64,000 nucleotides of DNA from Acidimicrobiia bacterium (GTDB taxonomy: Bacteria > Actinomycetota > Acidimicrobiia > IMCC26256 > PALSA-555), in contig DASUAO010000054.1 of the NCBI GenBank assembly GCA_035763745.1, positions 5,373 through 69,372 on the forward strand, written 5' to 3'. Numbering within the stretch: position 1 is the first letter of the stretch; each line of letters opens with the position of its first letter. A program made the translations under genes and the position numbers. The notes below the pieces were generated by a model. It saw only the letters and a list, made by a program, of their open reading frames with translations, was not told the DNA's origin and did not search any database. This document shows positions 2,531 through 43,798 of the stretch, one piece after another.

Positions 2531-2658
2531 GATGCCCGGGCAACGACGAGCGCGTCGGTTGTCAGTCGCCAGCGCCCGGGCCCCGTTGCCGAGCAACAGG
2601 TCCGGACCCTGACCACTGGGAACCGCCGGCTCTCCGATACGAGGAGTACCAAGTTCCC

Positions 2659-5196
2659 ATGTCACCCCAGGCGTCCAACGCCATCCGTGTGTCCGGCCCC
2701 GTCAACGACGCCGGCCTCACCCTGTCCTTCGAGACCGGTCGGCTCGCCAAGCTCGCCGCCGGCGCAGTCCTGGTCCAGATCGGCAGCACGACCCTGCTGT
2801 CGACCGTCGCCACCTCCACGCCGCGTGAGGGGATCGACTTCTTCCCCCTCACCGTCGACGTCGAGGAGCGGATGTACGCGGCCGGGAAGATCCCCGGCTC
2901 GTTCTTCCGTCGTGAGGGCCGTCCCGGCGAGGCCGCGATCCTGACCTGTCGCCTCACCGACCGCCCGTTGCGACCGTCGTTCCCGAGCGACTTCCGCAAC
3001 GAGGTCCAGGTCATCGCCACGATCCTCGGCGCCGACCTCGAGAACCCGCACGACATCGCCTCGATCAACGGCGCGTCCGCCGCCCTGATGGTCTCCGGCA
3101 TCCCGTTCGCCGGTCCGATCGGCGCAGTGCGCATCGCACACGTCGACGGCGCATGGGTCGCGCACCCCACCTACGAGCAGGGCGACGAGTCCACGTTCGA
3201 GATGGTCGTCGCCGGTCGCAAGCTCCACGACGGCGACGTCGCGGTGATGATGGTCGAAGCCGGCGGCACCGAGGGATCGTGGGACCGCTACGAGAGTGGC
3301 GCACCCAAGGTCACCGAGGACACGATCGTCGAGGGCCTCGAGTTCTCGAAGCAGTGGATCGTCGCATCGATCGACCTCCAGCTCGAGCTCGTGAAGAAGG
3401 TCCAGGAGGCGAACGGCCCGATCGAGATGATCGACTACGAGCCGCGCGTCGACTACACGCCCGACGTGTACGACGCCGTCGTCGCCGAAGCGCTCGAGCC
3501 GACCTCCGAGGCGCTCTCCATCGCCGAGAAGAACGCGCGCAACACGCGTCTCGACGAGATCAAGGACGCGACGATCGCGACCCTCGTCGGATCCAGCGAT
3601 GTCCCCGGTCCGCTCGCCGGGCGTGAGCGTGAGATCAAGGCCGCGTACCGTTCGCTCCAGAAGAAGGTCGTGCGCGACCGCATCGTCAAGGACGGTGTCC
3701 GCATCGACGGGCGCGGCACGAGCGACCTCCGGCCGTTGGCGGCCGAGGTCGACCTGCTGCCGACCGCGCACGGCACCGGCCTCTTCGAGCGTGGTGAGAC
3801 GCAGGTCCTGAGCGTCGTCACGCTCGGCATGCCCCGCATGGAGCAGATGGTCGACTCCATCGGGGTCGACGACCGCAAGCGCTACATGCACCACTACAAC
3901 TTCCCGCCCTTCTCCACCGGCGAGACCGGGCGCGTCGGTTCGCCGAAGCGCCGCGAGATCGGCCACGGTGCGCTGGCCGAGCGTGCGCTCACCCCGGTGC
4001 TCCCGAGCGCCGAGGAGTGGCCGTACACGATCCGGGTCGTCTCTGACGTGCTCGCCTCGAACGGCTCGACCTCGATGGCATCGGTCTGCGGATCGTCCCT
4101 CTCGCTGATGGACTCCGGGACGCCGATCAAGGCGCCCGTCGCCGGCATCGCCATGGGTCTCGTGCTCCACGACGGCGAGTACGTCACCCTGACCGACATC
4201 CTCGGCCAGGAAGACGCGTTCGGTGACATGGACTTCAAGGTCGCCGGTACCCGCGATGCGGTGACGGCGCTCCAGCTCGACACCAAGATCGATGGCATCC
4301 CCGCCGACGTGCTCGCCAAGGCGCTGCAGCAGGCGCGCGACGCCCGGCTCCAGATCCTCGACGTGATGCACGAGGCGATCGCAGAGCCGCGCGACGACGT
4401 GCAGGCGAGCGCGCCGAAGATCATCAGCATCCAGATCCCGATCGACAAGATCGGCGAGGTCATCGGCCCGAAGGGCAAGGTGATCAACACGATCACCCAG
4501 GAGACCGGTGCCGACGTGTCGGTGAGCGACGACGGCGTCGTCGGGACGGTGTCGATCGGCTCGAAGGACAACAGTGCGGTGGACGAGGCCCGTCGTCGCA
4601 TCGAGCTGATCCTCGACCCGCCGACCGCCGAGCTCGGCGCGACCTACACCGGCCGGGTCGTGAACATCACGAAGTTCGGTGCGTTCGTCAACGTGCTCCC
4701 CGGCCGTGACGGGCTGCTGCACATCTCGAAGATCGGTGGCGGTAAGCGCATCGACCGGGTCGAGGACGTGCTCAACCTCGGTGACGAGGTGGAAGTGCGC
4801 GTCGACGACATCGACAACTCCGGGAAGCTCTCCCTGAGCCTCGCCAGCTCCGAGCCGCCGGCCGAGGGGTCGTCGGATCGTGGCGGTGACCGTGATCGTG
4901 GAGGTGACCGTGATCGTGGCGGTGACCGTGATCGTGGCGGTGACCGTGGTGGTCGTGGACGCGGTGGCGACCGCGACCGAGGTGGTGACCGTGATCGTGG
5001 TGGCGAGCGCGATCGCGACGGCGATCGAGTCTCGGCGGGGTCCAGCGACGGCGGCGAGACCGTGTCGTTCGAGGAGACGTGGGAAGCCACGGCCCGTGAG
5101 GAGTTCGGCGACCTCGGCCCGGCAGAAGCCCCCCGCAGCGGCGGCGGTGGCGGGCGAGGCGGCCGCGGTGGTGGCGGCGGTCGCCGTCGCCGGTGA
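2659..5196 (+). CDS. pnp: Polynucleotide phosphorylase with a long low-complexity C-terminal tail
   Basis: Two RNase PH domains are followed by a KH domain (IGEVIGPKGKVINTI) and an S1 domain (GRVVNITKFGAFVNVLPG). GAGGAG lies upstream of the ATG. About 115 extra residues follow the S1 domain. Confidence 0.95.
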   Translation: MSPQASNAIRVSGPVNDAGLTLSFETGRLAKLAAGAVLVQIGSTTLLSTVATSTPREGIDFFPLTVDVEERMYAAGKIPGSFFRREGRPGEAAILTCRLTDRPLRPSFPSDFRNEVQVIATILGADLENPHDIASINGASAALMVSGIPFAGPIGAVRIAHVDGAWVAHPTYEQGDESTFEMVVAGRKLHDGDVAVMMVEAGGTEGSWDRYESGAPKVTEDTIVEGLEFSKQWIVASIDLQLELVKKVQEANGPIEMIDYEPRVDYTPDVYDAVVAEALEPTSEALSIAEKNARNTRLDEIKDATIATLVGSSDVPGPLAGREREIKAAYRSLQKKVVRDRIVKDGVRIDGRGTSDLRPLAAEVDLLPTAHGTGLFERGETQVLSVVTLGMPRMEQMVDSIGVDDRKRYMHHYNFPPFSTGETGRVGSPKRREIGHGALAERALTPVLPSAEEWPYTIRVVSDVLASNGSTSMASVCGSSLSLMDSGTPIKAPVAGIAMGLVLHDGEYVTLTDILGQEDAFGDMDFKVAGTRDAVTALQLDTKIDGIPADVLAKALQQARDARLQILDVMHEAIAEPRDDVQASAPKIISIQIPIDKIGEVIGPKGKVINTITQETGADVSVSDDGVVGTVSIGSKDNSAVDEARRRIELILDPPTAELGATYTGRVVNITKFGAFVNVLPGRDGLLHISKIGGGKRIDRVEDVLNLGDEVEVRVDDIDNSGKLSLSLASSEPPAEGSSDRGGDRDRGGDRDRGGDRDRGGDRGGRGRGGDRDRGGDRDRGGERDRDGDRVSAGSSDGGETVSFEETWEATAREEFGDLGPAEAPRSGGGGGRGGRGGGGGRRRR
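4876..5028 (+). repeat. In-frame tandem repeat (about 18-nt units GGTGACCGTGATCGTGGC) encoding (DRGGDR)n
   Basis: Direct reading gives gatcgtggcggtgaccgt repeated at least 4 times nearly perfectly, then degenerate copies. The translation is DRGGDRDRGGDRDRGGDRDRGGDRGGRGRGGDRDRGGDRDRGGERDRDGDR. Confidence 0.9.
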
Positions 5197-7408: not shown

Positions 7409-8209
7409 ATGAGCGCCCAGCCGCTGCTCGCGGTCCAGAGCCTCGAAGTTCGCTACGGCGGCGTGGTGCGGGTGCGAGGTGTCAGCTTCGACGTCGGAGC
7501 CGGCGAGATCGTGGCGCTGCTCGGCGCGAACGGCGCCGGGAAGTCGAGCCTGCTCCGGGCCATCTCGGGCCTGATCCAGGTGTACAACGGCCGCGTCGTC
7601 CGCGGCGACGTGCTCCTCGACGGCACCTCCATCCTCGGCTTGAGTGCGCCGGCGATCGTGCGCCGCGGGCTGGCGCAGGTCATGGAGGGTCGTCGGATCT
7701 TCGCCGAGCTCACGGTCGAGGAGAACCTGCGTTCCGGGGCGTTCACCCGACGCGACCGCTCCGGCGCGCGTGAGACCCAGGACGAGGTCTTCGCGATGTT
7801 CCCCGTGCTGGGCGAGCGGCGTCGATCCGTGGCCGGGTACCTCTCGGGAGGGGAGCAGCAGATGCTCGCCATCGGTCGGGCCCTCATGGCCGGGCCGCGG
7901 CTCCTGCTCCTCGACGAACCGTCGCTGGGACTCGCTCCGCTGATCCAGGAGCAGATCCGCGACACGATCGTGACCATCGCCGAGGGGGGGACGAGCGTGC
8001 TGCTGGTCGAGCAGAACGCCATGATGGCCCTCTCGATCGCGCACCGGGCGGCGGTCCTCGAGGGGGGCTACGTGGTGCGCGAGGGGCTCGGTTCGGAGCT
8101 GCTCGGCGACGACGAGATCCGCGAGGCCTATCTCGGGGCCGGCGATCGCGGGCGACGGTCGTTCAAGGACCTCAAGAGCTACGGCCGCCGCCGTCGGTGG
8201 AGCGCATGA
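7409..8209 (+). CDS. Branched-chain amino acid type ABC transporter, ATP-binding protein (LivF-like)
   Basis: Walker A GANGAGKSS, signature LSGGEQQML, Walker B LLLLDEPS. It ends in an unusual basic tail, RGRRSFKDLKSYGRRRRWSA. Confidence 0.85.
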   Translation: MSAQPLLAVQSLEVRYGGVVRVRGVSFDVGAGEIVALLGANGAGKSSLLRAISGLIQVYNGRVVRGDVLLDGTSILGLSAPAIVRRGLAQVMEGRRIFAELTVEENLRSGAFTRRDRSGARETQDEVFAMFPVLGERRRSVAGYLSGGEQQMLAIGRALMAGPRLLLLDEPSLGLAPLIQEQIRDTIVTIAEGGTSVLLVEQNAMMALSIAHRAAVLEGGYVVREGLGSELLGDDEIREAYLGAGDRGRRSFKDLKSYGRRRRWSA

Positions 8210-27560: not shown

Positions 27561-27773
27561 CTACTGGAACGGGCGGCTGCCGAGCTTGCGGCCCGGGGCC
27601 CACCGGCTCGGCTTCTTCGGGGCCTTGGGCTCCTTGAAGCGGGGCGTGACCTCGTCCTTGCTGCGGGCCAGCGCCTCCTCTGACCGGACGTTCGGCGACC
27701 GGACGTTCGGCGACCGGACGTTCGGCGTGCTCGGGGCGTCGGGGGTCGGTTCCACTGGTTCCTCATCGGCCAT
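27561..27773 (-). CDS. Small hypothetical protein (70 aa) with PNVRS x3 repeat and basic C-terminus
   Basis: The ATG ORF has about 93% G/C at codon position 3 by direct count. It is divergent from recA, with the recA LexA box 35 nt upstream of its ATG. No family recognised. Confidence 0.5.
   Translation of the reverse strand: MADEEPVEPTPDAPSTPNVRSPNVRSPNVRSEEALARSKDEVTPRFKEPKAPKKPSRWAPGRKLGSRPFQ
27682..27726. repeat. Perfect 15-bp tandem repeat GACCGGACGTTCGGC x3
   Basis: Read directly at 27682-96, 27697-711 and 27712-26. It lies inside the small minus-strand ORF and encodes PNVRS x3. Confidence 0.95.
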
Positions 27774-36614: not shown

Positions 36615-37148
36615 GTGCCGCCGCATCGCGACGGGGGCCAGGCCCAGCACGTGGGGATGCCGGTCGAGGAGACGTCGGGGCCGGACCCGCTGCGGGCGAC
36701 CCTCGACCGGACGCTCGACCGCCTCGACGAGCCGCTCACCGTGGAGATGCTCGCGGCCCGGGCCCACATGAGCCCCCGGACGTGCGCGCGGCGGTTCCGC
36801 GCGACGACCGGGGTCACCCCCCACCAGTGGCTGCTGCACGCCCAGCGGCTGCTCGAGACGACGGACCAGGCCGTGGAGCGGGTCGCGCATGCCTCGGGGT
36901 TCGGTTCTGCCGGCGCGATGCGACTGCACTTCCAGCGGACGCTCGGGACGTCGCCCCGGGCCTACCGGCGGACGTTCCGGGTGACGAACGGCTGGCACGA
37001 ACGGCCGGGACGAGCGGGGTGGGGTCAGAGGCGGCGCAGCAGCGTGACGACCTTGCCGAAGATCGCCACGTCGGCAGGGTCGAGCACCATCTCCTCGAGG
37101 GCAGGGTTCTCGGGCCGCAGCACGACCTTGCCCCGGCGGCGGAGGTAG
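36615..37148 (+). pseudogene. AraC/GlxA-type HTH domain only (N-terminal sensor domain missing); possible gene remnant
   Basis: LTVEMLAARAHMSPRTCARRFRATTGVTPHQWLLHAQRLLETTDQAVERVAHASGFGSAGAMRLHFQRTLGTSPRAYRRTF is a complete AraC-type double HTH. No room exists upstream for a DJ-1/PfpI or other ligand domain, because dapD ends at 36591. The ORF tail runs 124 nt into the lexA 3' end. Confidence 0.45.
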
Positions 37149-37654
37149 GTCTTCACGGTCCCCTCGTTGCCGTGGATCCCGGCGACGACCGTGTCGCCCG
37201 GCTCGGCCGTGGTCTGGTGGCGCACGACCACGTAGTCGCCGTCGAGGATGCCCGCGTCGATCATCGAGTCGCCCTTGACCTTGACCATGTACAGCTCGCC
37301 GGCGCCGGTGAAGTCCTCCGGCATCGGTACGCTCTCGTCGATCTCCTGTTCGGCGATCACACCGGCGTCGCCGGCCGCGATCTGGCCCACGAGCGGGACG
37401 TGGCGGACCGGTCGCCGCTCGACGGCCGAGCCCGACGCGGAGTCGTAGACGAGCTCCATGGCGCGGGGCTTCGTGGGGTCCCGCTTCAGGAAGCCCTTGT
37501 CCTGGAGGGCCGCGAGGTGGGCGTGGACCGTGGAGCTCGACGAGAGCCCGACGGCCTCGCCGATCTCCCGCACGCTCGGGGGATAGCCGCGGTCGCGGAC
37601 CTCGGCGTCGATGAACTCGAGGACCTGGCGTTGACGTTCCGTGAGATCGGTCAT
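37025..37654 (-). CDS. lexA: LexA repressor
   Basis: Start taken at MTDLTERQRQVLEFI (ATG 37654). Motifs: wHTH SVREIGEAVGLSS, the cleavage-site region, and the Ser/Lys dyad in KVKGDSMIDAGI ... FGKV. Confidence 0.95.
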   Translation of the reverse strand: MTDLTERQRQVLEFIDAEVRDRGYPPSVREIGEAVGLSSSSTVHAHLAALQDKGFLKRDPTKPRAMELVYDSASGSAVERRPVRHVPLVGQIAAGDAGVIAEQEIDESVPMPEDFTGAGELYMVKVKGDSMIDAGILDGDYVVVRHQTTAEPGDTVVAGIHGNEGTVKTYLRRRGKVVLRPENPALEEMVLDPADVAIFGKVVTLLRRL

Positions 37655-37661
37655 GCCGGTG

Positions 37662-37690
37662 ACGGTAGCACGAATACGTGTTCGGGGCAA
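37662..37690 (-). promoter_or_regulatory. Candidate lexA promoter TTGCCC-N17-TACCGT with a LexA box in the spacer; would give a leaderless or near-leaderless mRNA
   Basis: Reading the minus strand, the -35 is at 37690-85 and the -10 at 37667-62. The -10 ends 7 nt before the ATG. Confidence 0.4.
37671..37684. promoter_or_regulatory. LexA box CGAATacgtGTTCG (one mismatch)
   Basis: 17 nt upstream of the lexA ATG, consistent with autoregulation. Confidence 0.7.
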
Positions 37691-37701
37691 ACACCTGTTC
37701 G
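37688..37701. promoter_or_regulatory. Second, weaker LexA-like box CAAACacctGTTCG
   Basis: Adjacent to the first lexA box. Core is AAAC-N4-GTTC (one mismatch). Confidence 0.5.
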
Positions 37702-37721
37702 ACCCCACGGGGATGCGCGGG

Positions 37722-37991
37722 CTACGTGGCGTCCCTGATCTCCCGGAGGAAGTCCTCCAGGGGGAGCGCGCCCTCGAAGCGCTTCCGGTTCCGCCCGACG
37801 CCCCGGGCGGGACCGTCGGGGGCCGGGAGCGCCGGCGCCTCGGCCCGCTCCACGGCCTCCGGCGCTTCGCCGAGCATGCGGGCCGGCTCGGTCTCCGACG
37901 GTCGGGGGCGTGGGTCCATGGCGGGCCTCTCGAGGTCGGGGTTCGGCGTCCCTGGGACGTCGTGGGCGGGCTGGGGTGTCGGCGTCCTCAT
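37722..37991 (-). CDS. Unannotated small ORF (89 aa from ATG 37991) between the LexA-box array and lexA
   Basis: About 93% G/C at codon position 3 by direct count, against about 67% for the overlapping plus-strand frame. Pro/Glu/Ala-rich N-terminus and a C-terminus of GRNRKRFEGALPLEDFLREIRDAT. The ATG lies 37 nt downstream of a perfect LexA box. No family recognised. Confidence 0.5.
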   Translation of the reverse strand: MRTPTPQPAHDVPGTPNPDLERPAMDPRPRPSETEPARMLGEAPEAVERAEAPALPAPDGPARGVGRNRKRFEGALPLEDFLREIRDAT

Positions 37992-38027
37992 CGGCACCCG
38001 TCCGGGAATTCCTGAGCTTCCTGCGCC

Positions 38028-38041
38028 TCGAACATCTGTTC
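38028..38041. promoter_or_regulatory. LexA box TCGAACatctGTTC
   Basis: Perfect GAAC-N4-GTTC core at 38030-41. Confidence 0.75.
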
Positions 38042-38048
38042 TTGACGC

Positions 38049-38062
38049 CGAACAGATGTTCT
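38049..38062. promoter_or_regulatory. LexA box CGAACagatGTTCT
   Basis: Perfect core at 38050-61, the exact reverse complement of the core at 38030-41. TTGACG immediately precedes it at 38042-47. Confidence 0.75.
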
Positions 38063-38071
38063 GCTTGGATG

Positions 38072-38085
38072 GGAACACGCGTTCG
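38072..38085. promoter_or_regulatory. LexA box GGAACacgcGTTCG
   Basis: Perfect core at 38073-84. Confidence 0.7.
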
Positions 38086-38097
38086 GGACCTCCCCCT

Positions 38098-38142
38098 CCA
38101 GCAAGGCCCGCACCCAGCAAGGCCCGCACCCAGCAAGGCCGG
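38098..38142. repeat. 15-bp tandem repeat CCAGCAAGGCCCGCA x2 plus one degenerate copy
   Basis: Read directly at 38098-112, 38113-127 and 38128-142 (the last copy ends GGAC). Confidence 0.9.
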
Positions 38143-38287
38143 ACCGACCCGACGCCGTTGTCATCGCTCGACTGTCACACCCGGGTGGTCCCATCTCCGG
38201 GTGGACGCACGACGCCAGATCCCACCAGTCCCAGACCGCCCTGCTCGGGTCCCGGCGACCCGAGCCCAGACCCAGGAATCGCACCAG

Positions 38288-38731
38288 ATGGCTGCCGTCA
38301 CGACCGTCCCCGGCTTCGGAGTGGCAACGGGTCCCGCAACCCGTCGCTGCACGCCGCGCGCTGCCACGCGCGGTCGCCGGTGTTCGCCCACCACGTACCG
38401 GCGCCGCCGCATGGCGGCGCTGCTCGTGTCGGTGGGCCTCGTGGTCGTGGCCGCACAGGCGGGTGCTGCGCTCGGGGGCTCCTCCCTCGCTGCTTCCGAG
38501 CGCCGCCCGACCTCGCAGCCCGGCACCGCGCCGGGCGCCCCGGAGGCCGACACGGCCGGCCTCCGGGAGGTCCCCGGCCGGGAGGTCGTCGTCCGTCCCG
38601 GCGACACGCTGTGGGCCATCGCGGTCCGCCTGGCGCCCGACGAGGACCCGCGTCCACTCGTCGACGAGCTCATGGCGGCCCGCGACGGTGCACCGCTCGA
38701 GCCCGGCGAGGTCATCGTCGTCCCGGCCTGA
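38288..38731 (+). CDS. LysM-domain membrane protein, ChiZ/DivS-like (SOS-linked cell-wall/division factor candidate)
   Basis: Arg-rich N-terminus, one TM segment (MAALLVSVGLVVVAAQAGAAL), and a C-terminal LysM domain (VVVRPGDTLWAIAVRLAP...LEPGEVIVVP). Its position between lexA and nrdR matches Rv2719c in M. tuberculosis. An alternative start exists at 38411. Confidence 0.7.
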   Translation: MAAVTTVPGFGVATGPATRRCTPRAATRGRRCSPTTYRRRRMAALLVSVGLVVVAAQAGAALGGSSLAASERRPTSQPGTAPGAPEADTAGLREVPGREVVVRPGDTLWAIAVRLAPDEDPRPLVDELMAARDGAPLEPGEVIVVPA

Positions 38732-38814: not shown

Positions 38815-39297
38815 ATGCGCTGCCCGTACTGCGAAGCCGACGACGACAAGGTCGTGGACTCGCGCCCGGTCGACGGGGGCGGGTCGGTGCGACGGCGACG
38901 GGAGTGCCTCGGGTGCGGGCGCCGGTACACGACCCACGAACGACCCGTCGAGCTGCCGCTGATGGTGGTGAAGCGCTCGGGCCTCAAGGAGCCGTTCGAC
39001 CGGGCGAAGCTCATCGGCGGGATCGCCAAGGCCCTCGCCGACGGGGCCGCGTCGGCCGAGGCGCTCGACGTGATCGCCGCGGAGATCGAGGAGGATGCCC
39101 GCGCCGCGGGGCCCGAGGTCGCGACCGAGACCCTGGGCATGGCGGTGCTGGAACGGCTGCGGGTGCTCGACCCGATCTCGTACCTGCGCTTCGCGTCCGT
39201 CTACAAGGGCTTCGACGCGGTGGCGGACTTCGAGCGCGAGGTCGTCGCGCTCCGCAAGACCACGGCGCCGAAGCGGCGGCGGGGCCGCCCCGGATGA
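38815..39297 (+). CDS. nrdR: Transcriptional repressor NrdR
   Basis: Zinc ribbon MRCPYCEADDDKVVDSR...CLGCGRRYTTHE followed by an ATP-cone. Confidence 0.95.
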   Translation: MRCPYCEADDDKVVDSRPVDGGGSVRRRRECLGCGRRYTTHERPVELPLMVVKRSGLKEPFDRAKLIGGIAKALADGAASAEALDVIAAEIEEDARAAGPEVATETLGMAVLERLRVLDPISYLRFASVYKGFDAVADFEREVVALRKTTAPKRRRGRPG

Positions 39298-39367
39298 GCC
39301 GGATCGGCCGTCCGGAGCCGTTTCCCCCGGCTCCCCAGGATTTCTTCGCCTGTGGCCAAAGTGACCA

Positions 39368-39397
39368 TTGACACAGGTGGAATTTCAGTGGTGTAAT
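39368..39397 (+). promoter_or_regulatory. Near-consensus promoter TTGACA-N18-TGTAAT upstream of nrdJ
   Basis: -35 at 39368-73 and -10 at 39392-97, in a locally AT-rich patch. The spacer holds the imperfect palindrome ACAC-N16-GTGT (39371-94). Confidence 0.5.
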
Positions 39398-39427
39398 TCA
39401 CCCCGCATCTCGTAGGCAGGAGAGTAC

Positions 39428-39592: not shown

Positions 39593-42500
39593 ATGGCGAT
39601 TGCGCCGGAGCAGATCGGCATCGGGATCCGCCGATACTTCACCCAGCCCGGAGTGCACCCCTACGACACCGTCGAGTGGGAGCAGCGCGACGCCAGGATC
39701 CAGAACTTCAAGGACGGCACCGACGCCTTCCTCCAGACCGAGGTCGAGTTCCCCGTCGCCTGGTCGCAGAACGCGACGAACATCGTCGCCCAGAAGTACT
39801 TCCGCGGGACGCTCGGCACCGACGAGCGCGAGTCGTCACTCAAGCAGGTGATCGACCGCGTCACCGACACGATCACCAGGTGGGGCGTGCGCGACGGCTA
39901 CTTCGTCGACGAGCAGGAGGGCGCCGCCTTCCGCAACGAGCTCAAGTACGTCCTGTTGCACCAGCGCGCCGCGTTCAACTCGCCGGTGTGGTTCAACATC
40001 GGCGTGAAGGGGGTTCCGAAGCAGGCATCGGCGTGCTTCATCCTCGCGGTCGAGGACACGATGGACGGCATCCTCAACTGGTACCGGGAGGAGGGGACGA
40101 TCTTCAAGGGCGGTTCGGGCTCGGGGATCAACCTCTCCAACATCCGCTCGTCGCGCGAGCACCTCGCGGGCGGCGGCACCGCGAGCGGACCGGTGAGCTT
40201 CATGCGCGGCGCCGACGCGTCGGCCGGAACGATCAAGAGCGGGGGCAAGACCCGCCGCGCGGCGAAGATGGTCATCCTCAACGTCGACCACCCCGACGTC
40301 GAGGAGTTCATCTGGTGCAAGGCCCGTGAGGAGCGCAAGGCCCGTGTCCTCAAGGAGGCCGGCTTCGACATGGACCTCGACGGGATCGACTCGCACTCCA
40401 TCCAGTACCAGAACGCGAACAACTCGGTGCGCGTCACCGACGAGTTCATGAACGCCGTCGTCGAGGACACCGACTGGGACCTCACGGCGGTGAAGAGCGA
40501 CGAGTCACTCAAGACCGTGCGCGCGCGCGACATCATGCGCGCGATCGCCGAGGCCGCCTGGGAGTGCGCTGACCCCGGGATGCAGTACGACACCACGATC
40601 AACGCGTGGCACACCGCACCCAACACCGGCCGCATCAACGCGTCCAACCCGTGCTCGGAGTACATGCACCTCGACAACTCCGCGTGCAACCTGTCGAGCA
40701 TCAACCTGCTCGAGTACCTCAACAACGACGGCTCGTTCGACATCGAGGGCTTCGAGCACACGGTCGAGGTGATGTTCACGGCGCAGGAGATCCTCGTGGG
40801 CAACGCCGACTACCCGACCGAGGCGATCGGCGACAACAGCCGCAAGTTCCGCCAGCTCGGCCTCGGCTACGCGAACCTCGGCGCGCTCCTCATGGCCCAG
40901 GGCCTCGCGTACGACTCCGACGAGGGCCGCGCCTGGGCGGGCGCCATCACCGCGCTCCTGACCGGGCACGCCTACGCCACGAGCGCGCGCACCGCGGGCA
41001 GGATGGGCCCGTTCGCCGGCTTCGCCGAGAACTCCGAGCCGATGCTCGAGGTGCTGCGCAAGCATCGCCGGGAGACCGCGAGCATCGACGAGGACCTCGT
41101 CCCGGTCGAGCTGCTCAGCGCCGCGCAGCGCTCCTGGGACGAGGCCGTCGAGGTCGGCGAGATCCACGGCGTGCGCAACTCCCAGGCGTCCGTGCTGGCA
41201 CCGACGGGCACGATCGGCCTGATGATGGACTGCGACACCACCGGCATCGAGCCCGACCTCGCGCTCACCAAGTCGAAGAAGCTGGTGGGTGGGGGGACGA
41301 TGCTGATCGTCAACCAGACGATCCCGCGGGCGCTCCGCAAGCTCGGGTACTCGGGCGAGCAGGCCGATGCGATCGTCGCGCACATCAACGAGCACAAGTC
41401 CATCCTCGGTGCGCCGCACTTCAAGGAAGAGCACCTGCCGGTGTTCGCGTGCTCCATGGGCGACAACACGATCCACTACACGGGCCACGTGAAGATGATG
41501 GCGGCGGTCCAGCCGTTCATCTCGGGAGCGATCTCGAAGTGCGTCACCGGCGACACGCTGGTGACCACCTCCGACGGGCTCGTGCGGATCGGGTCGCTCC
41601 ATCGCGGTGAGTCGGCCGACAGCTTCCGCAACGAGATCCTCGAGGTCGCGTCGCTCGACGGCACGCAGAAGACCGACGCCTTCTACTACGGCGGGCACCG
41701 CCAGGTGCGCGAGGTCACGCTGCGGTCGGGCCACCGCGTGCAGGCGACCCCCAACCATCGGCTCCTCGTCGCTCGCGACGGTGGGCTCGACTGGGTGGCC
41801 ACCGAGGACCTCGAGCTCGGGGAGTGGGTTGCCGTCCAGTACGGCGACGACCTCTGGTCGACGCTTCCCGCGCGCTTCGACGACTTCACCCCGTACGCCG
41901 CGTACGGCAACCAGAAGTCGGTGCGGATCCCGACGGAGATGAGCGAGGAGCTCGCGTTCCTGCTCGGCGCGTACATCTCGGAGGGCCACACCACGCGCTC
42001 GAACTGGACGGTCACGATCACCAACTCGGTTCCGTCGGTCCTCGACCGCGTCGCGGCCGCGTGGCGCGACGAGTTCGGTGTGGAGGCAAGGCTCGAGGTC
42101 CGCGACAACCGCTGCGCCCAGGTGCATGCCTCGTCGAAGACGATCGTCGAGCTCCTCGAGCACCTCGGGTGTGGCGAACGGGCGTCGGAGAAGCGGATCC
42201 CCGACGTCGTCCTGCGCTCGCCGAAGGAGATGGTGCTCGCGTTCCTCCAGGGGCTCGCGCTCGACGCGTACGTGACGACCTCGACGGCACCCAAGTGGGC
42301 GATCTGCATGGACTCTCCAGGGCTGCTCGACGACCTCCAAGCGATCCTCACGAACCTGGGGATCGTCCACGGACGCGTCTCGAAGGCGAATCCGCAGTAC
42401 GCCAAGTCCTACGACGAGGTGTACGTGACCGGCGAGGATGCCCAGCAGCTCGTCGGGCTCGTCCCGTTCCTCGAGCCCGAGAAGGCCGAGCGGGCCGAGC

Positions 42501-43798
42501 GCCTGCTCGACCTGGCGATCCATCGCGCGCACGACACCGCCGACGTCGTCCCGGGCATCACACCTCGCGAGCTCTACGACCTCCTGCCGAAGGGTCGGCC
42601 GGGTCGGAGCGGGCGGGGCACCGGGGTCTCGCAGGAGTTCGCGTTCCTCTGCGACCCGCGCACCACGCATGTCACCCGGCGCACCGTCGAGCGGGTCGCC
42701 CGGGTCGGGGGAGTGCACCTCCCGACCTGGCTCCAGACGGTGCTCGTCGACAACCTGCACTTCAGCCCGGTCCAGGCGGTTCGAGACGGTGACGTCGTCG
42801 ACGTGTTCGACCTCTCGGTGCCGGCGACGCACGCCTTCGTCGGCAACGGCATCGTGAACCACAACACGGTCAACATGCCGGAGGAGGCGACGGTCGAGGA
42901 CGTCGAGGAGCTGTACCTCGAGGGATGGCGCCTCGGCCTGAAGGCCGTCGCCATCTACCGCGACAACTGCAAGGTCGGCCAGCCCCTCTCCACCCAGAAG
43001 AAGGCGAGCGCGGCCGCCGACCCGGGTGCCGCCACACCGACCGACACGGCGACGGCGGTCGTCGATGCGCTCACCCAGCAGGTCGAGCGCATCGTCGAGA
43101 CCGTGATCGTCCAGCAGCCGGTCCGCCAGAAGCTCGGGCGGGTCCGGAGCTCGAAGACGTTCTCGTTCCGGGTGGCCGACTGCCACGGGTACGCGACGGT
43201 CGGGGAGTTCGAGGACGGGCGTCCCGGCGAGGTGTTCCTGAAGGTCGCCAAGCAGGGCTCGACGCTCGCCGGGATCATGGACGCGTTCGCGATCTCGGTG
43301 AGCATGGGACTCCAGTACGGAGTGCCGCTGCGGGCGTTCGTCGAGAAGTTCACGAACATGCGCTTCGAGCCGGCCGGCATGACCGACGACCCGGACCTGC
43401 GGTTCGCGACGAGCCTCGTCGACTACATCTTCCGGCGCCTGGCGGTCGAGTACATGGACCCGCAGGAGCGGGCCGACCTCGGCGTGCTCACGGTGCACGA
43501 GCGGCTCGAGCCGACGTTGCCCGGCGTGGAGGAGGCGGCGACGCCCACCTCGAAGGGCCAGGACCTGCTCCCGCCCGAGGACCGTGCGCCGTCGGACTCG
43601 CTGTTCGACGCCCCGCCCGAGGTGTCCGAGCCGGTGGCCGAGGCGCCGGTCGCCGACGCGCCGGCACCGCCCGAGGCACCGCCGGCGCGCGCGATGGAGG
43701 CCGAGGTGGTGCTCTGCTACGTCTGCGGCGACATCATGCAGCGGGCGGGCTCGTGCCACGCCTGCCCGTCGTGCGGCGCCACGAGCGGCTGCTCGTAG
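39593..43798 (+). CDS. nrdJ: Class II (adenosylcobalamin-dependent) ribonucleotide reductase, interrupted by an intein
   Basis: Motifs: YDTVEWEQRDARI, NATNIVAQKYFRG, ACFIL, NPCSEYMHLDNSACNLSSINL and a C-terminal Cys-rich zinc ribbon (CYVCGDIMQRAGSCHACPSCG). 1401 aa in total, about 959 aa without the intein. Confidence 0.9.
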   Translation: MAIAPEQIGIGIRRYFTQPGVHPYDTVEWEQRDARIQNFKDGTDAFLQTEVEFPVAWSQNATNIVAQKYFRGTLGTDERESSLKQVIDRVTDTITRWGVRDGYFVDEQEGAAFRNELKYVLLHQRAAFNSPVWFNIGVKGVPKQASACFILAVEDTMDGILNWYREEGTIFKGGSGSGINLSNIRSSREHLAGGGTASGPVSFMRGADASAGTIKSGGKTRRAAKMVILNVDHPDVEEFIWCKAREERKARVLKEAGFDMDLDGIDSHSIQYQNANNSVRVTDEFMNAVVEDTDWDLTAVKSDESLKTVRARDIMRAIAEAAWECADPGMQYDTTINAWHTAPNTGRINASNPCSEYMHLDNSACNLSSINLLEYLNNDGSFDIEGFEHTVEVMFTAQEILVGNADYPTEAIGDNSRKFRQLGLGYANLGALLMAQGLAYDSDEGRAWAGAITALLTGHAYATSARTAGRMGPFAGFAENSEPMLEVLRKHRRETASIDEDLVPVELLSAAQRSWDEAVEVGEIHGVRNSQASVLAPTGTIGLMMDCDTTGIEPDLALTKSKKLVGGGTMLIVNQTIPRALRKLGYSGEQADAIVAHINEHKSILGAPHFKEEHLPVFACSMGDNTIHYTGHVKMMAAVQPFISGAISKCVTGDTLVTTSDGLVRIGSLHRGESADSFRNEILEVASLDGTQKTDAFYYGGHRQVREVTLRSGHRVQATPNHRLLVARDGGLDWVATEDLELGEWVAVQYGDDLWSTLPARFDDFTPYAAYGNQKSVRIPTEMSEELAFLLGAYISEGHTTRSNWTVTITNSVPSVLDRVAAAWRDEFGVEARLEVRDNRCAQVHASSKTIVELLEHLGCGERASEKRIPDVVLRSPKEMVLAFLQGLALDAYVTTSTAPKWAICMDSPGLLDDLQAILTNLGIVHGRVSKANPQYAKSYDEVYVTGEDAQQLVGLVPFLEPEKAERAERLLDLAIHRAHDTADVVPGITPRELYDLLPKGRPGRSGRGTGVSQEFAFLCDPRTTHVTRRTVERVARVGGVHLPTWLQTVLVDNLHFSPVQAVRDGDVVDVFDLSVPATHAFVGNGIVNHNTVNMPEEATVEDVEELYLEGWRLGLKAVAIYRDNCKVGQPLSTQKKASAAADPGAATPTDTATAVVDALTQQVERIVETVIVQQPVRQKLGRVRSSKTFSFRVADCHGYATVGEFEDGRPGEVFLKVAKQGSTLAGIMDAFAISVSMGLQYGVPLRAFVEKFTNMRFEPAGMTDDPDLRFATSLVDYIFRRLAVEYMDPQERADLGVLTVHERLEPTLPGVEEAATPTSKGQDLLPPEDRAPSDSLFDAPPEVSEPVAEAPVADAPAPPEAPPARAMEAEVVLCYVCGDIMQRAGSCHACPSCGATSGCS
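41540..42865 (+). mobile_element. Intein (442 aa) with LAGLIDADG homing endonuclease domain
   Basis: Inserted in GAISK|TVNMP. Starts CVTGDTLVTTSDGLVRIG, with block B TPNHRLL. LAGLIDADG-like motifs are LAFLLGAYISEGHT and VLAFLQGLALDAYV. It ends VGNGIVNHN, followed by Thr at +1. Confidence 0.9.

Follow-up and report, generated by a model that had tools for sequence, protein, structure and literature searches.

SOS division inhibitors encoded divergently from lexA occur across Gram-positive bacteria, where YneA, ChiZ, DivS and SosA have been described, and they have little sequence in common (PMC6851548). In the lexA/Rv2719c region of Mycobacterium tuberculosis, four SOS boxes were assigned, one to lexA and three to Rv2719c (PMC3381160, citing Dullaghan 2002 and Brooks 2006). 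LexA forms two separate peaks there in chromatin immunoprecipitation sequencing, and the induction of Rv2719c comes mostly from RecA_NDp (PMC3381160). According to transcript traces, the rv2719c operon, but not lexA, is the target of the three boxes and of a PafBC motif (PMC8151990), and Rv2719c-nrdR-Rv2717c constitutes one operon found in both the LexA and the RecA-independent regulons (PMC4181829). Here, we analyzed a comparable locus in a 64-kb stretch of DNA from an Acidimicrobiia bacterium (contig DASUAO010000054.1; the whole stretch is called the window below), in which an array of three LexA-type boxes lies between lexA and a gene for a LysM membrane protein.

The window resembles the M. 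tuberculosis lexA (Rv2720)/Rv2719c (chiZ) region in several respects. In both, lexA is divergent from the gene of a LysM membrane protein, and nrdR comes after the latter; the LysM operon has three boxes and lexA a separate site, an assignment that rests on position in the window; and a RecA-NDp/PafBC promoter, represented in the window by a similar sequence block that we call P2, is oriented toward the LysM operon. There are also differences. The three boxes of M. tuberculosis carry 2, 2 and 3 mismatches (PMC3381160), whereas the cores in the window are perfect and visibly interleaved with a promoter; lexA has one box in M. tuberculosis and two in the window; and the window comes from an uncultured member of the Acidimicrobiia, with an extra gene for a 65-amino-acid (65-aa) protein between the array and lexA. 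This gene beside lexA is the only element of the locus without precedent. The overall design appears to be the one already defined experimentally in M. tuberculosis, and it reveals no new mechanism.

The lexA/yneA-yneB-ynzC region of Bacillus subtilis similarly contains a LexA-repressed gene for a division-blocking LysM membrane protein (PMC5445613; PMC6851548), placed divergently from lexA (PMC6851548), and it shares the Cheo-type operator CGAAC-N4-GTTCG (PMC9578287). It differs from the window in having neither a downstream nrdR nor a RecA-NDp-type second promoter, and YneA is only marginally similar to the LysM protein of the window. Three LexA sites are reportedly present in the B. subtilis lexA/yneA intergenic region, a count that is said to go back to the studies of Kawai (2003), Au (2005) and Groban (2005). 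The promoter of Escherichia coli recN also carries three LexA operators, so that the gene is expressed in damaged cells only (PMC10714372), although the SOS-box motif is a different one and the gene is unrelated. An initial inspection of the window without database searches (the sequence-only reading) had regarded a triple operator as unusual, a view contradicted by the three-site arrangements of M. tuberculosis Rv2719c (PMC3381160; PMC8151990) and E. coli recN (PMC10714372).

We consider it likely that the array forms a three-box LexA operator on a single plus-strand promoter, P1, which would transcribe the YneA/ChiZ-type LysM gene and nrdR, with P2 as an additional promoter and with lexA under separate control. 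The coordinates of all elements are collected in Table 1.

Table 1 Features of the lexA/LysM-nrdR locus and of the recA promoter region in the window
Feature	Position	Strand	Description
lexA (209 aa)	37025..37654	-	Pfam LexA_DNA_bind (PF01726) 5e-28; Peptidase_S24 (PF00717) 3e-28
lexA -10, TACCGT	37662..37667	-	7 nt before ATG; predicted
lexA proximal box	37672..37683	palindrome	GAATACGTGTTC on +; one core mismatch; in lexA promoter spacer; at -29 from ATG, conserved in relatives
lexA -35, TTGCCC	37690-37685	-	overlapped by distal box
lexA distal box	37689..37700	palindrome	AAACACCTGTTC on +; one core mismatch; overlaps lexA -35; at -46, conserved in relatives
65-aa gene	37722..37919	-	MDPRPRPSETE...RKRFEGALPLEDFLREIRDAT; between array and lexA
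LexA box 1	38030..38041	palindrome	GAACATCTGTTC; abuts upstream edge of -35; ~-47 to -36 from predicted start
P1 -35, TTGACG	38042..38047	+	TTGAC in every related locus read, including distant L004-L006; fixed by pattern in L028-L038
LexA box 2	38050..38061	palindrome	GAACAGATGTTC; within 17-nt P1 spacer; core operator
P1 extended -10, TGc + TTGGAT	38062..38070	+	TG(C/G)TT(G/T/A)GAT in 17/17 arrays; partly pattern-fixed in L028-L038; predicted
LexA box 3	38073..38084	palindrome	GAACACGCGTTC; over predicted start ~38077; roughly -4 to +8
16-bp tandem repeat in P1 leader	38098..38145	+	CCAGCAAGGCCCGCAC x 2.7-3; variable spacer, not conserved
P2 block	38173..38194	+	TGTCACAC-N8-TCCCAT; ~100 nt downstream of box 3; RecA-NDp/PafBC-like
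LysM gene (147 aa, YneA/ChiZ-like)	38288..38731	+	Pfam LysM 22.1 bits (cut-off 20.9)
nrdR	38815..39297	+	Pfam Zn_ribbon_NrdR 5e-20, ATP-cone 3e-12; synteny kept in relatives
recA LexA-controlled promoter	27801-29	+	TTGACC-cc-GAACGGGTGTTC-gtc-TAGCGT; 17-nt spacer
recA proximal P2-like element	27900-21	+	TGTCACAC-N8-TAGGTT; ~60 nt before recA start, downstream of LexA-controlled promoter

Three perfect boxes interleaved with a predicted promoter

We counted perfect GAAC-N4-GTTC matches across the 64-kb window and in 100 shuffles. The window contained 5 such matches compared to 0.59 expected, a number reached by none of the 100 shuffles, and three of the five were packed into the 55 bp of the array. 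The other two were located in the recA promoter (27809-20) and in a coding region (7723). Two sites considered among the near-matches, at 7723 and 47623, fall within coding regions; they were taken as chance occurrences. The three 12-mers of the array were found exactly where the sequence-only reading had placed them, with the centre-to-centre spacings of 20 and 23 bp that it had reported. Each has a perfect 12-mer core and agrees with the CGAAC-N4-GTTCG 14-mer at 13 of 14 positions, the mismatched flank being occupied by the -35, the TG or the -10 side of P1. The 14-mer is the Gram-positive/actinobacterial SOS box (PMC9578287, Table 1), and the same motif fronts recA as a perfect 14-mer and lexA as two one-mismatch boxes in the window. 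The assignment of the array boxes as LexA operators of the Cheo type is strongly supported in silico.

Related loci came from two sources. Seven were found via proteins, namely the window itself, L001, L002, L003 and L010 through LexA, and L024 and L025 through the 65-aa protein. Eleven further loci (L028-L038) were retrieved by a DNA pattern search whose only fixed elements were box 2, the -35, a portion of the -10 and, of box 1, the 3′ half; both the 5′ half of that box and all of box 3 were left unconstrained. Together, the protein-found and pattern-found loci yielded 17 distinct Acidimicrobiia arrays, and promoters were assigned from conservation across related loci; distant LexA loci in the range L007-L023 were uninformative on array architecture. 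By its LexA relatives, the window belongs to the class Acidimicrobiia. The close relatives were all metagenome-assembled, and the window sequence was matched only in soil, sediment and freshwater metagenomes.

In all three boxes of all 17 arrays, the GAAC and GTTC half-site columns were invariant and the four central bases were variable. Invariant half-sites flanking free centres are the signature of a protein-binding palindrome. Box 3, despite being left free by the search pattern, was perfect in 17/17 arrays. The exact reverse complementarity of two boxes pointed out by the sequence-only reading holds true for boxes 1 and 2 of the window, and it was given no weight because it is confined to the window and its closest relative, L010, among the 17 distinct arrays.

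Reading along the plus strand, the array runs in the order box 1, TTGACG, cc, box 2, TGc, TTGGAT, gg, box 3, so that a putative -35 and an extended -10 alternate with the boxes. The recA promoter, TTGACC-cc-box, is the partner of this layout in the window and holds a perfect 14-mer, CGAACGGGTGTTCG, at 27808-21 of its spacer. The placement of box 2 in the P1 spacer is the same as that of the single recA box and of the proximal lexA box, so that box 2 likely corresponds in position to the usual one-box SOS operator of this organism, to which boxes 1 and 3 are added on the flanks. Box 2 was also the one box kept in every relative that we read. Among the distant relatives, L005 has one box, L006 two and L004 two perfect ones, and in all three TTGAC is followed by a box in the spacer. 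Because the distant relatives hold fewer boxes, the triple array seems to have been elaborated from a promoter with one box.

The distances between the boxes can be accounted for by the same layout. The box 1-box 2 distance was always 20 bp in the 17 arrays, a constancy explained by the P1 -35 that sits between them. The box 2-box 3 spacing took values of 23, 24, 26 or 27 bp, and because it varies, box 3 appeared to track the start site rather than a helical face. Strict helical phasing of the array, as suggested by the sequence-only reading, is therefore not conserved. Its proposal of tight repression fared better in part: for the plus-strand operon it agrees with boxes that interleave with the -35, the spacer, the -10 and the predicted start, while the cooperativity that was attached to it is undercut by the variable box 2-box 3 spacing.

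In the mechanism that we propose, LexA would control a single sigma-A-type promoter on the plus strand, P1, through the three boxes, and P1 would transcribe the genes of the LysM membrane protein and NrdR. Three LexA dimers would cover approximately positions -49 to +10 and exclude RNA polymerase; upon DNA damage, RecA-stimulated self-cleavage of LexA would free P1. Three high-affinity sites would be expected to cause very low basal expression and delayed induction, which would suit a gene whose product stops division. The LexA-independent P2, ~100 nt downstream, would probably add activator-dependent damage induction, as at recA, and lexA would be governed separately by its own two boxes and its own, probably leaderless, promoter.

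Several observations weigh against this proposal. A simple promoter/terminator scan of 37600-38400 found nothing; the P1 -10, TTGGAT, is a weak fit to TAnnnT; and the -10 of P2 in the window, TCCCAT, is more degenerate than the TTCGAT/TTCGCT of relatives. The best NCBIfam match of the 147-aa LysM protein, YneA (NF010723), scored 16.2 bits against a cut-off of 60, leaving the protein a candidate DNA-damage cell-division inhibitor as judged from its architecture and synteny. Finally, metatranscriptomes (8 RNA runs) yielded scattered unstranded contigs over the region at a depth of 2-4, too thin to map starts or to reveal induction.

The putative LysM-nrdR operon

The LysM protein encoded downstream of the array has an Arg-rich N-terminus, a single hydrophobic segment (MAALLVSVGLVVVAAQAGAAL; residues 42-62 as read from the sequence), a Pro/Ala-rich linker and a C-terminal LysM domain, and its residues 100-146 align with the complete LysM domain of chain 5k2l. 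Its orthologues adjoin nrdR in all related loci. In the window, nrdR starts 83 nt after the LysM gene on the same strand. The Pfam LysM and NrdR domains bear out the earlier description of a LysM gene followed by nrdR on the plus strand.

Downstream of nrdR, the plus strand encodes a class II (B12-dependent) ribonucleotide reductase (39593-43798) interrupted by an intein (Pfam Intein_splicing, LAGLIDADG_3 endonuclease). An AT-richer segment before the ribonucleotide reductase gene, at 39340-39400 (ttgacacaggtggaatttcagtggtgtaattca), may hold NrdR boxes.

A P2-like element in front of both the LysM gene and recA

The P2 block was compared in 22 related loci, and all of them contained the form TGTC(A/T)CAC-CCnnnnGG-TTnnnT, whose distance from the array varied. 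The motif has 2 matches in the window compared to 0.16 expected, the second of which precedes recA. The mycobacterial RecA-NDp/PafBC motif, tTGTCRgtg-8 nt-TannnT (PMC5656591), was initially described as the P1 promoter of recA (PMC5656591, PMC8223512). The geometry of the window element is identical to that of the mycobacterial motif and TGTCA is shared, but the next bases are CAC instead of gtg, giving TGTCACAC in place of TGTCRgtg, and the -10 is of the TTnnnT/TCCCAT type instead of TAnnnT. The hexamer reads TCCCAT in the window, TTCGAT or TTCGCT in relatives and TAGGTT at recA. P2 is probably a LexA-independent, activator-dependent damage promoter.

The tandem elements in front of recA in the window mirror the P2/P1 pair of M. 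tuberculosis recA. As in the mycobacterial dual promoters, a distal LexA-controlled promoter is combined with a proximal TGTC...-N8-hexamer, an arrangement present here at both recA and the LysM operon (PMC5656591, PMC8223512). The window differs from these in the TGTCACAC variant of the motif and in that its activator is only presumed. Just upstream of the recA promoter, at 27676-27725, a 15-bp unit, GACCGGACGTTCGGC, occurs in three tandem copies. Each copy includes a stretch that departs from the 14-mer LexA consensus at one position, and the copies may lie within the 3′ end of a minus-strand open reading frame (ORF).

The leader between P1 and P2 varies in length among relatives, which carry other repeats or none in place of the 16-bp repeat of the window. 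This segment is a hotspot of short tandem repeats: in L010 (~3430-3490), an 18-bp unit is present three times and triplicates TGTCACACCC, and L025 contains another repeat. A structured RNA in the P1 leader was not detected, with no Rfam match at E <= 1 and an ordinary fold energy (z = -0.35).

Separate boxes and a probable promoter for lexA

The LexA encoded in the window is complete: a winged-helix domain, an S24 domain and an AAG|D cleavage-site motif are all present, and the protein has a full-length match to structure chain 3k2z (8e-34). Its two boxes were always 17 bp apart in relatives. In the window, they are combined with the predicted promoter in the string TTGCCC-c-GAACACGTATTC-gtgc-TACCGT, and relatives have TAnnnT 6-7 nt ahead of the lexA ATG. 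No Shine-Dalgarno sequence fits between the -10 and the ATG. Because the -10 ends 7 nt before the ATG without room for a Shine-Dalgarno sequence, the lexA mRNA is probably leaderless. An AraC-family regulator gene (36615-37030, plus strand) converges on lexA, and the 3′ ends of the two genes appear to overlap by a few bases (37025-37027).

Five LexA boxes within ~415 bp, the number given by the sequence-only reading, are indeed present in the window, the lexA pair with one core mismatch each. The distance from the lexA distal box to box 1 varied widely: eleven arrays had 24-30 bp, two had 46-47 bp, four had 339-401 bp and a single one had 1317 bp. In contrast, the array kept a roughly constant place before the LysM gene, box 3 lying 46-124 bp from TGTCACAC. 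The comparison of the intergenic architecture in relatives thus found the three-box array in 17/17 distinct arrays, staying with the LysM gene. The array/lexA junction has taken up different inserts depending on the lineage. In the 1317-bp case, L001, a 1.3-kb cytochrome-P450-like gene (~2650-3950; FGFGAHFCLG heme motif by eye) is found between the array and the lexA boxes, with a TTGCCG-17-TACGTT promoter of its own, also identified by eye, outside the boxes. L002 contains an additional one-mismatch box (GAACACGTGATC, lexA orientation) at ~3940-3951 between the lexA pair and the triple array, which brings this locus to six LexA-type sites within ~120 bp.

Because the array is fixed to the LysM gene and freely spaced from lexA, two separable modules are favoured, a two-box module for lexA and a three-box module for LysM-nrdR. 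The data favour the array serving LysM-nrdR and do not call for cooperative phasing. The earlier description of the array as lying upstream of lexA is correct in that lexA occupies the minus strand, as confirmed by Pfam, but the array does not appear to be functionally that of lexA, which has its own promoter and two boxes at a distance of 24-1317 bp.

The 65-aa gene and alternative roles of the array

The small minus-strand ORF that the sequence-only reading had described as leading into lexA was found to be a real gene, shorter than assumed (65 aa, 37919..37722) and confined to one sub-lineage. Longer readings of the ORF, of 135 and 89 aa, were rejected, as the homologues start at the ATG at 37919 and in L025 the ATG farther upstream is not in frame. 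The nine homologues, 60-85 aa long, have in common the N-terminal MDPxPRPSxxEL and an invariant RKRFEGALPLEDFLREI near the C-terminus, with in-frame insertions and deletions in the middle, and their genes were always located between the LysM gene/array and lexA, on the lexA strand. The comparison of the window with L024 showed 9, 14 and 26 substitutions at codon positions 1, 2 and 3, respectively, and 18 synonymous codon changes. The invariant C-terminal block bearing RKRFEGALPLEDFLREI contained synonymous changes only (printed sequences compared), and the GAGAGG Shine-Dalgarno of the gene was conserved. The gene is restricted to one sub-lineage of Acidimicrobiia; most relatives lack it, and even L034 and L037, otherwise near relatives of the window, are without it. 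The protein had no Pfam or NCBIfam match, among 1.8 billion proteins its family formed only three representative clusters at 50% identity, and the AlphaFold model was mostly disordered with a C-terminal helix (mean predicted local distance difference test score, pLDDT, 63.7), the RKRFEGALPLEDFLREI motif being predicted to end in a helix.

This gene raises the question of whether the array works in both directions, also repressing a minus-strand promoter from which the 65-aa gene would be transcribed with read-through into lexA, thereby feeding lexA autoregulation. The 65-aa gene is oriented away from the array and starts ~110 nt from box 1, with no terminator-like site before lexA; its leader revealed no independent TAnnnT-type promoter and contains two blocks, GCTCAGGAAT and TGCCGATGRGGAC, conserved in four loci. 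In the metatranscriptomes, one contig (37781-38050) extends across box 1 and ends on the first base of box 2, and a second (37459-37788) spans the 3′ end of the 65-aa gene into lexA. However, these RNA contigs are unstranded, of depth 2-3, and may represent DNA carry-over. Sigma-A-like and extracytoplasmic-function (ECF)-like placements of a minus-strand promoter for the 65-aa gene, made by eye on the alignment, included no -35/-10 convincingly positioned on the boxes. Moreover, most relatives with the full array lack the 65-aa gene, indicating that the array did not evolve for it; the P450-like gene that takes the same slot in L001 uses its own promoter outside the boxes; and in M. tuberculosis the three boxes are without effect on lexA transcript levels (PMC8151990). 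We therefore regard a bidirectional operator as possible but rather unlikely. A stronger version, in which the 65-aa protein would be an SOS-induced modulator expressed from a LexA-controlled promoter of a truly bidirectional array and co-transcribed with lexA, seems improbable to us; if true, the protein might be an adaptor binding LexA, RecA or the division machinery via its C-terminal helix.

The second alternative is a cooperative LexA complex on all five sites, in which phased dimer-dimer contacts or looping would couple lexA autoregulation to the checkpoint operon. Such a complex would be compatible with compact relatives, which hold all five boxes in ~115 bp and in which the distal box and box 1 are separated by 24-26 bp (10/17 arrays), and with spacings of 17, 20 and 23 bp, which are near two helical turns. 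Against it, the same lexA-array distance is also 30, 46, 47, 339-401 or 1317 bp in other loci, the 23-27-bp range of the box 2-box 3 spacing corresponds to a rotation of ~135 degrees, so that the helix face is not conserved, and the fixed 20 bp between boxes 1 and 2 is explained by the intervening -35. The M. tuberculosis data likewise point to two independent modules (PMC3381160, PMC8151990), and we judge that a five-site complex has little chance of being correct. Binding of the palindromes by a different regulator, or their origin as a chance or repeat-derived cluster, is extremely improbable, because, even though LexA binding in the window organism is a prediction from sequence, the identical motif occurs in the recA and lexA promoters and equals the CGAAC-N4-GTTCG SOS box (PMC9578287), its enrichment and clustering are far above chance, and half-sites are invariant with free centres in 17 arrays.

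Implications

A three-box LexA operator on P1, which we favour over these alternatives, would extend the M. tuberculosis architecture to the deep-branching, largely uncultured Acidimicrobiia. Its presence in both Acidimicrobiia and M. tuberculosis suggests that the layout may be old within Actinomycetota. For studying how many LexA sites, and in which places, determine when and at what threshold a division checkpoint is triggered, the perfect and cleanly interleaved boxes of this locus provide a natural template that is clearer than the degenerate sites of mycobacteria.

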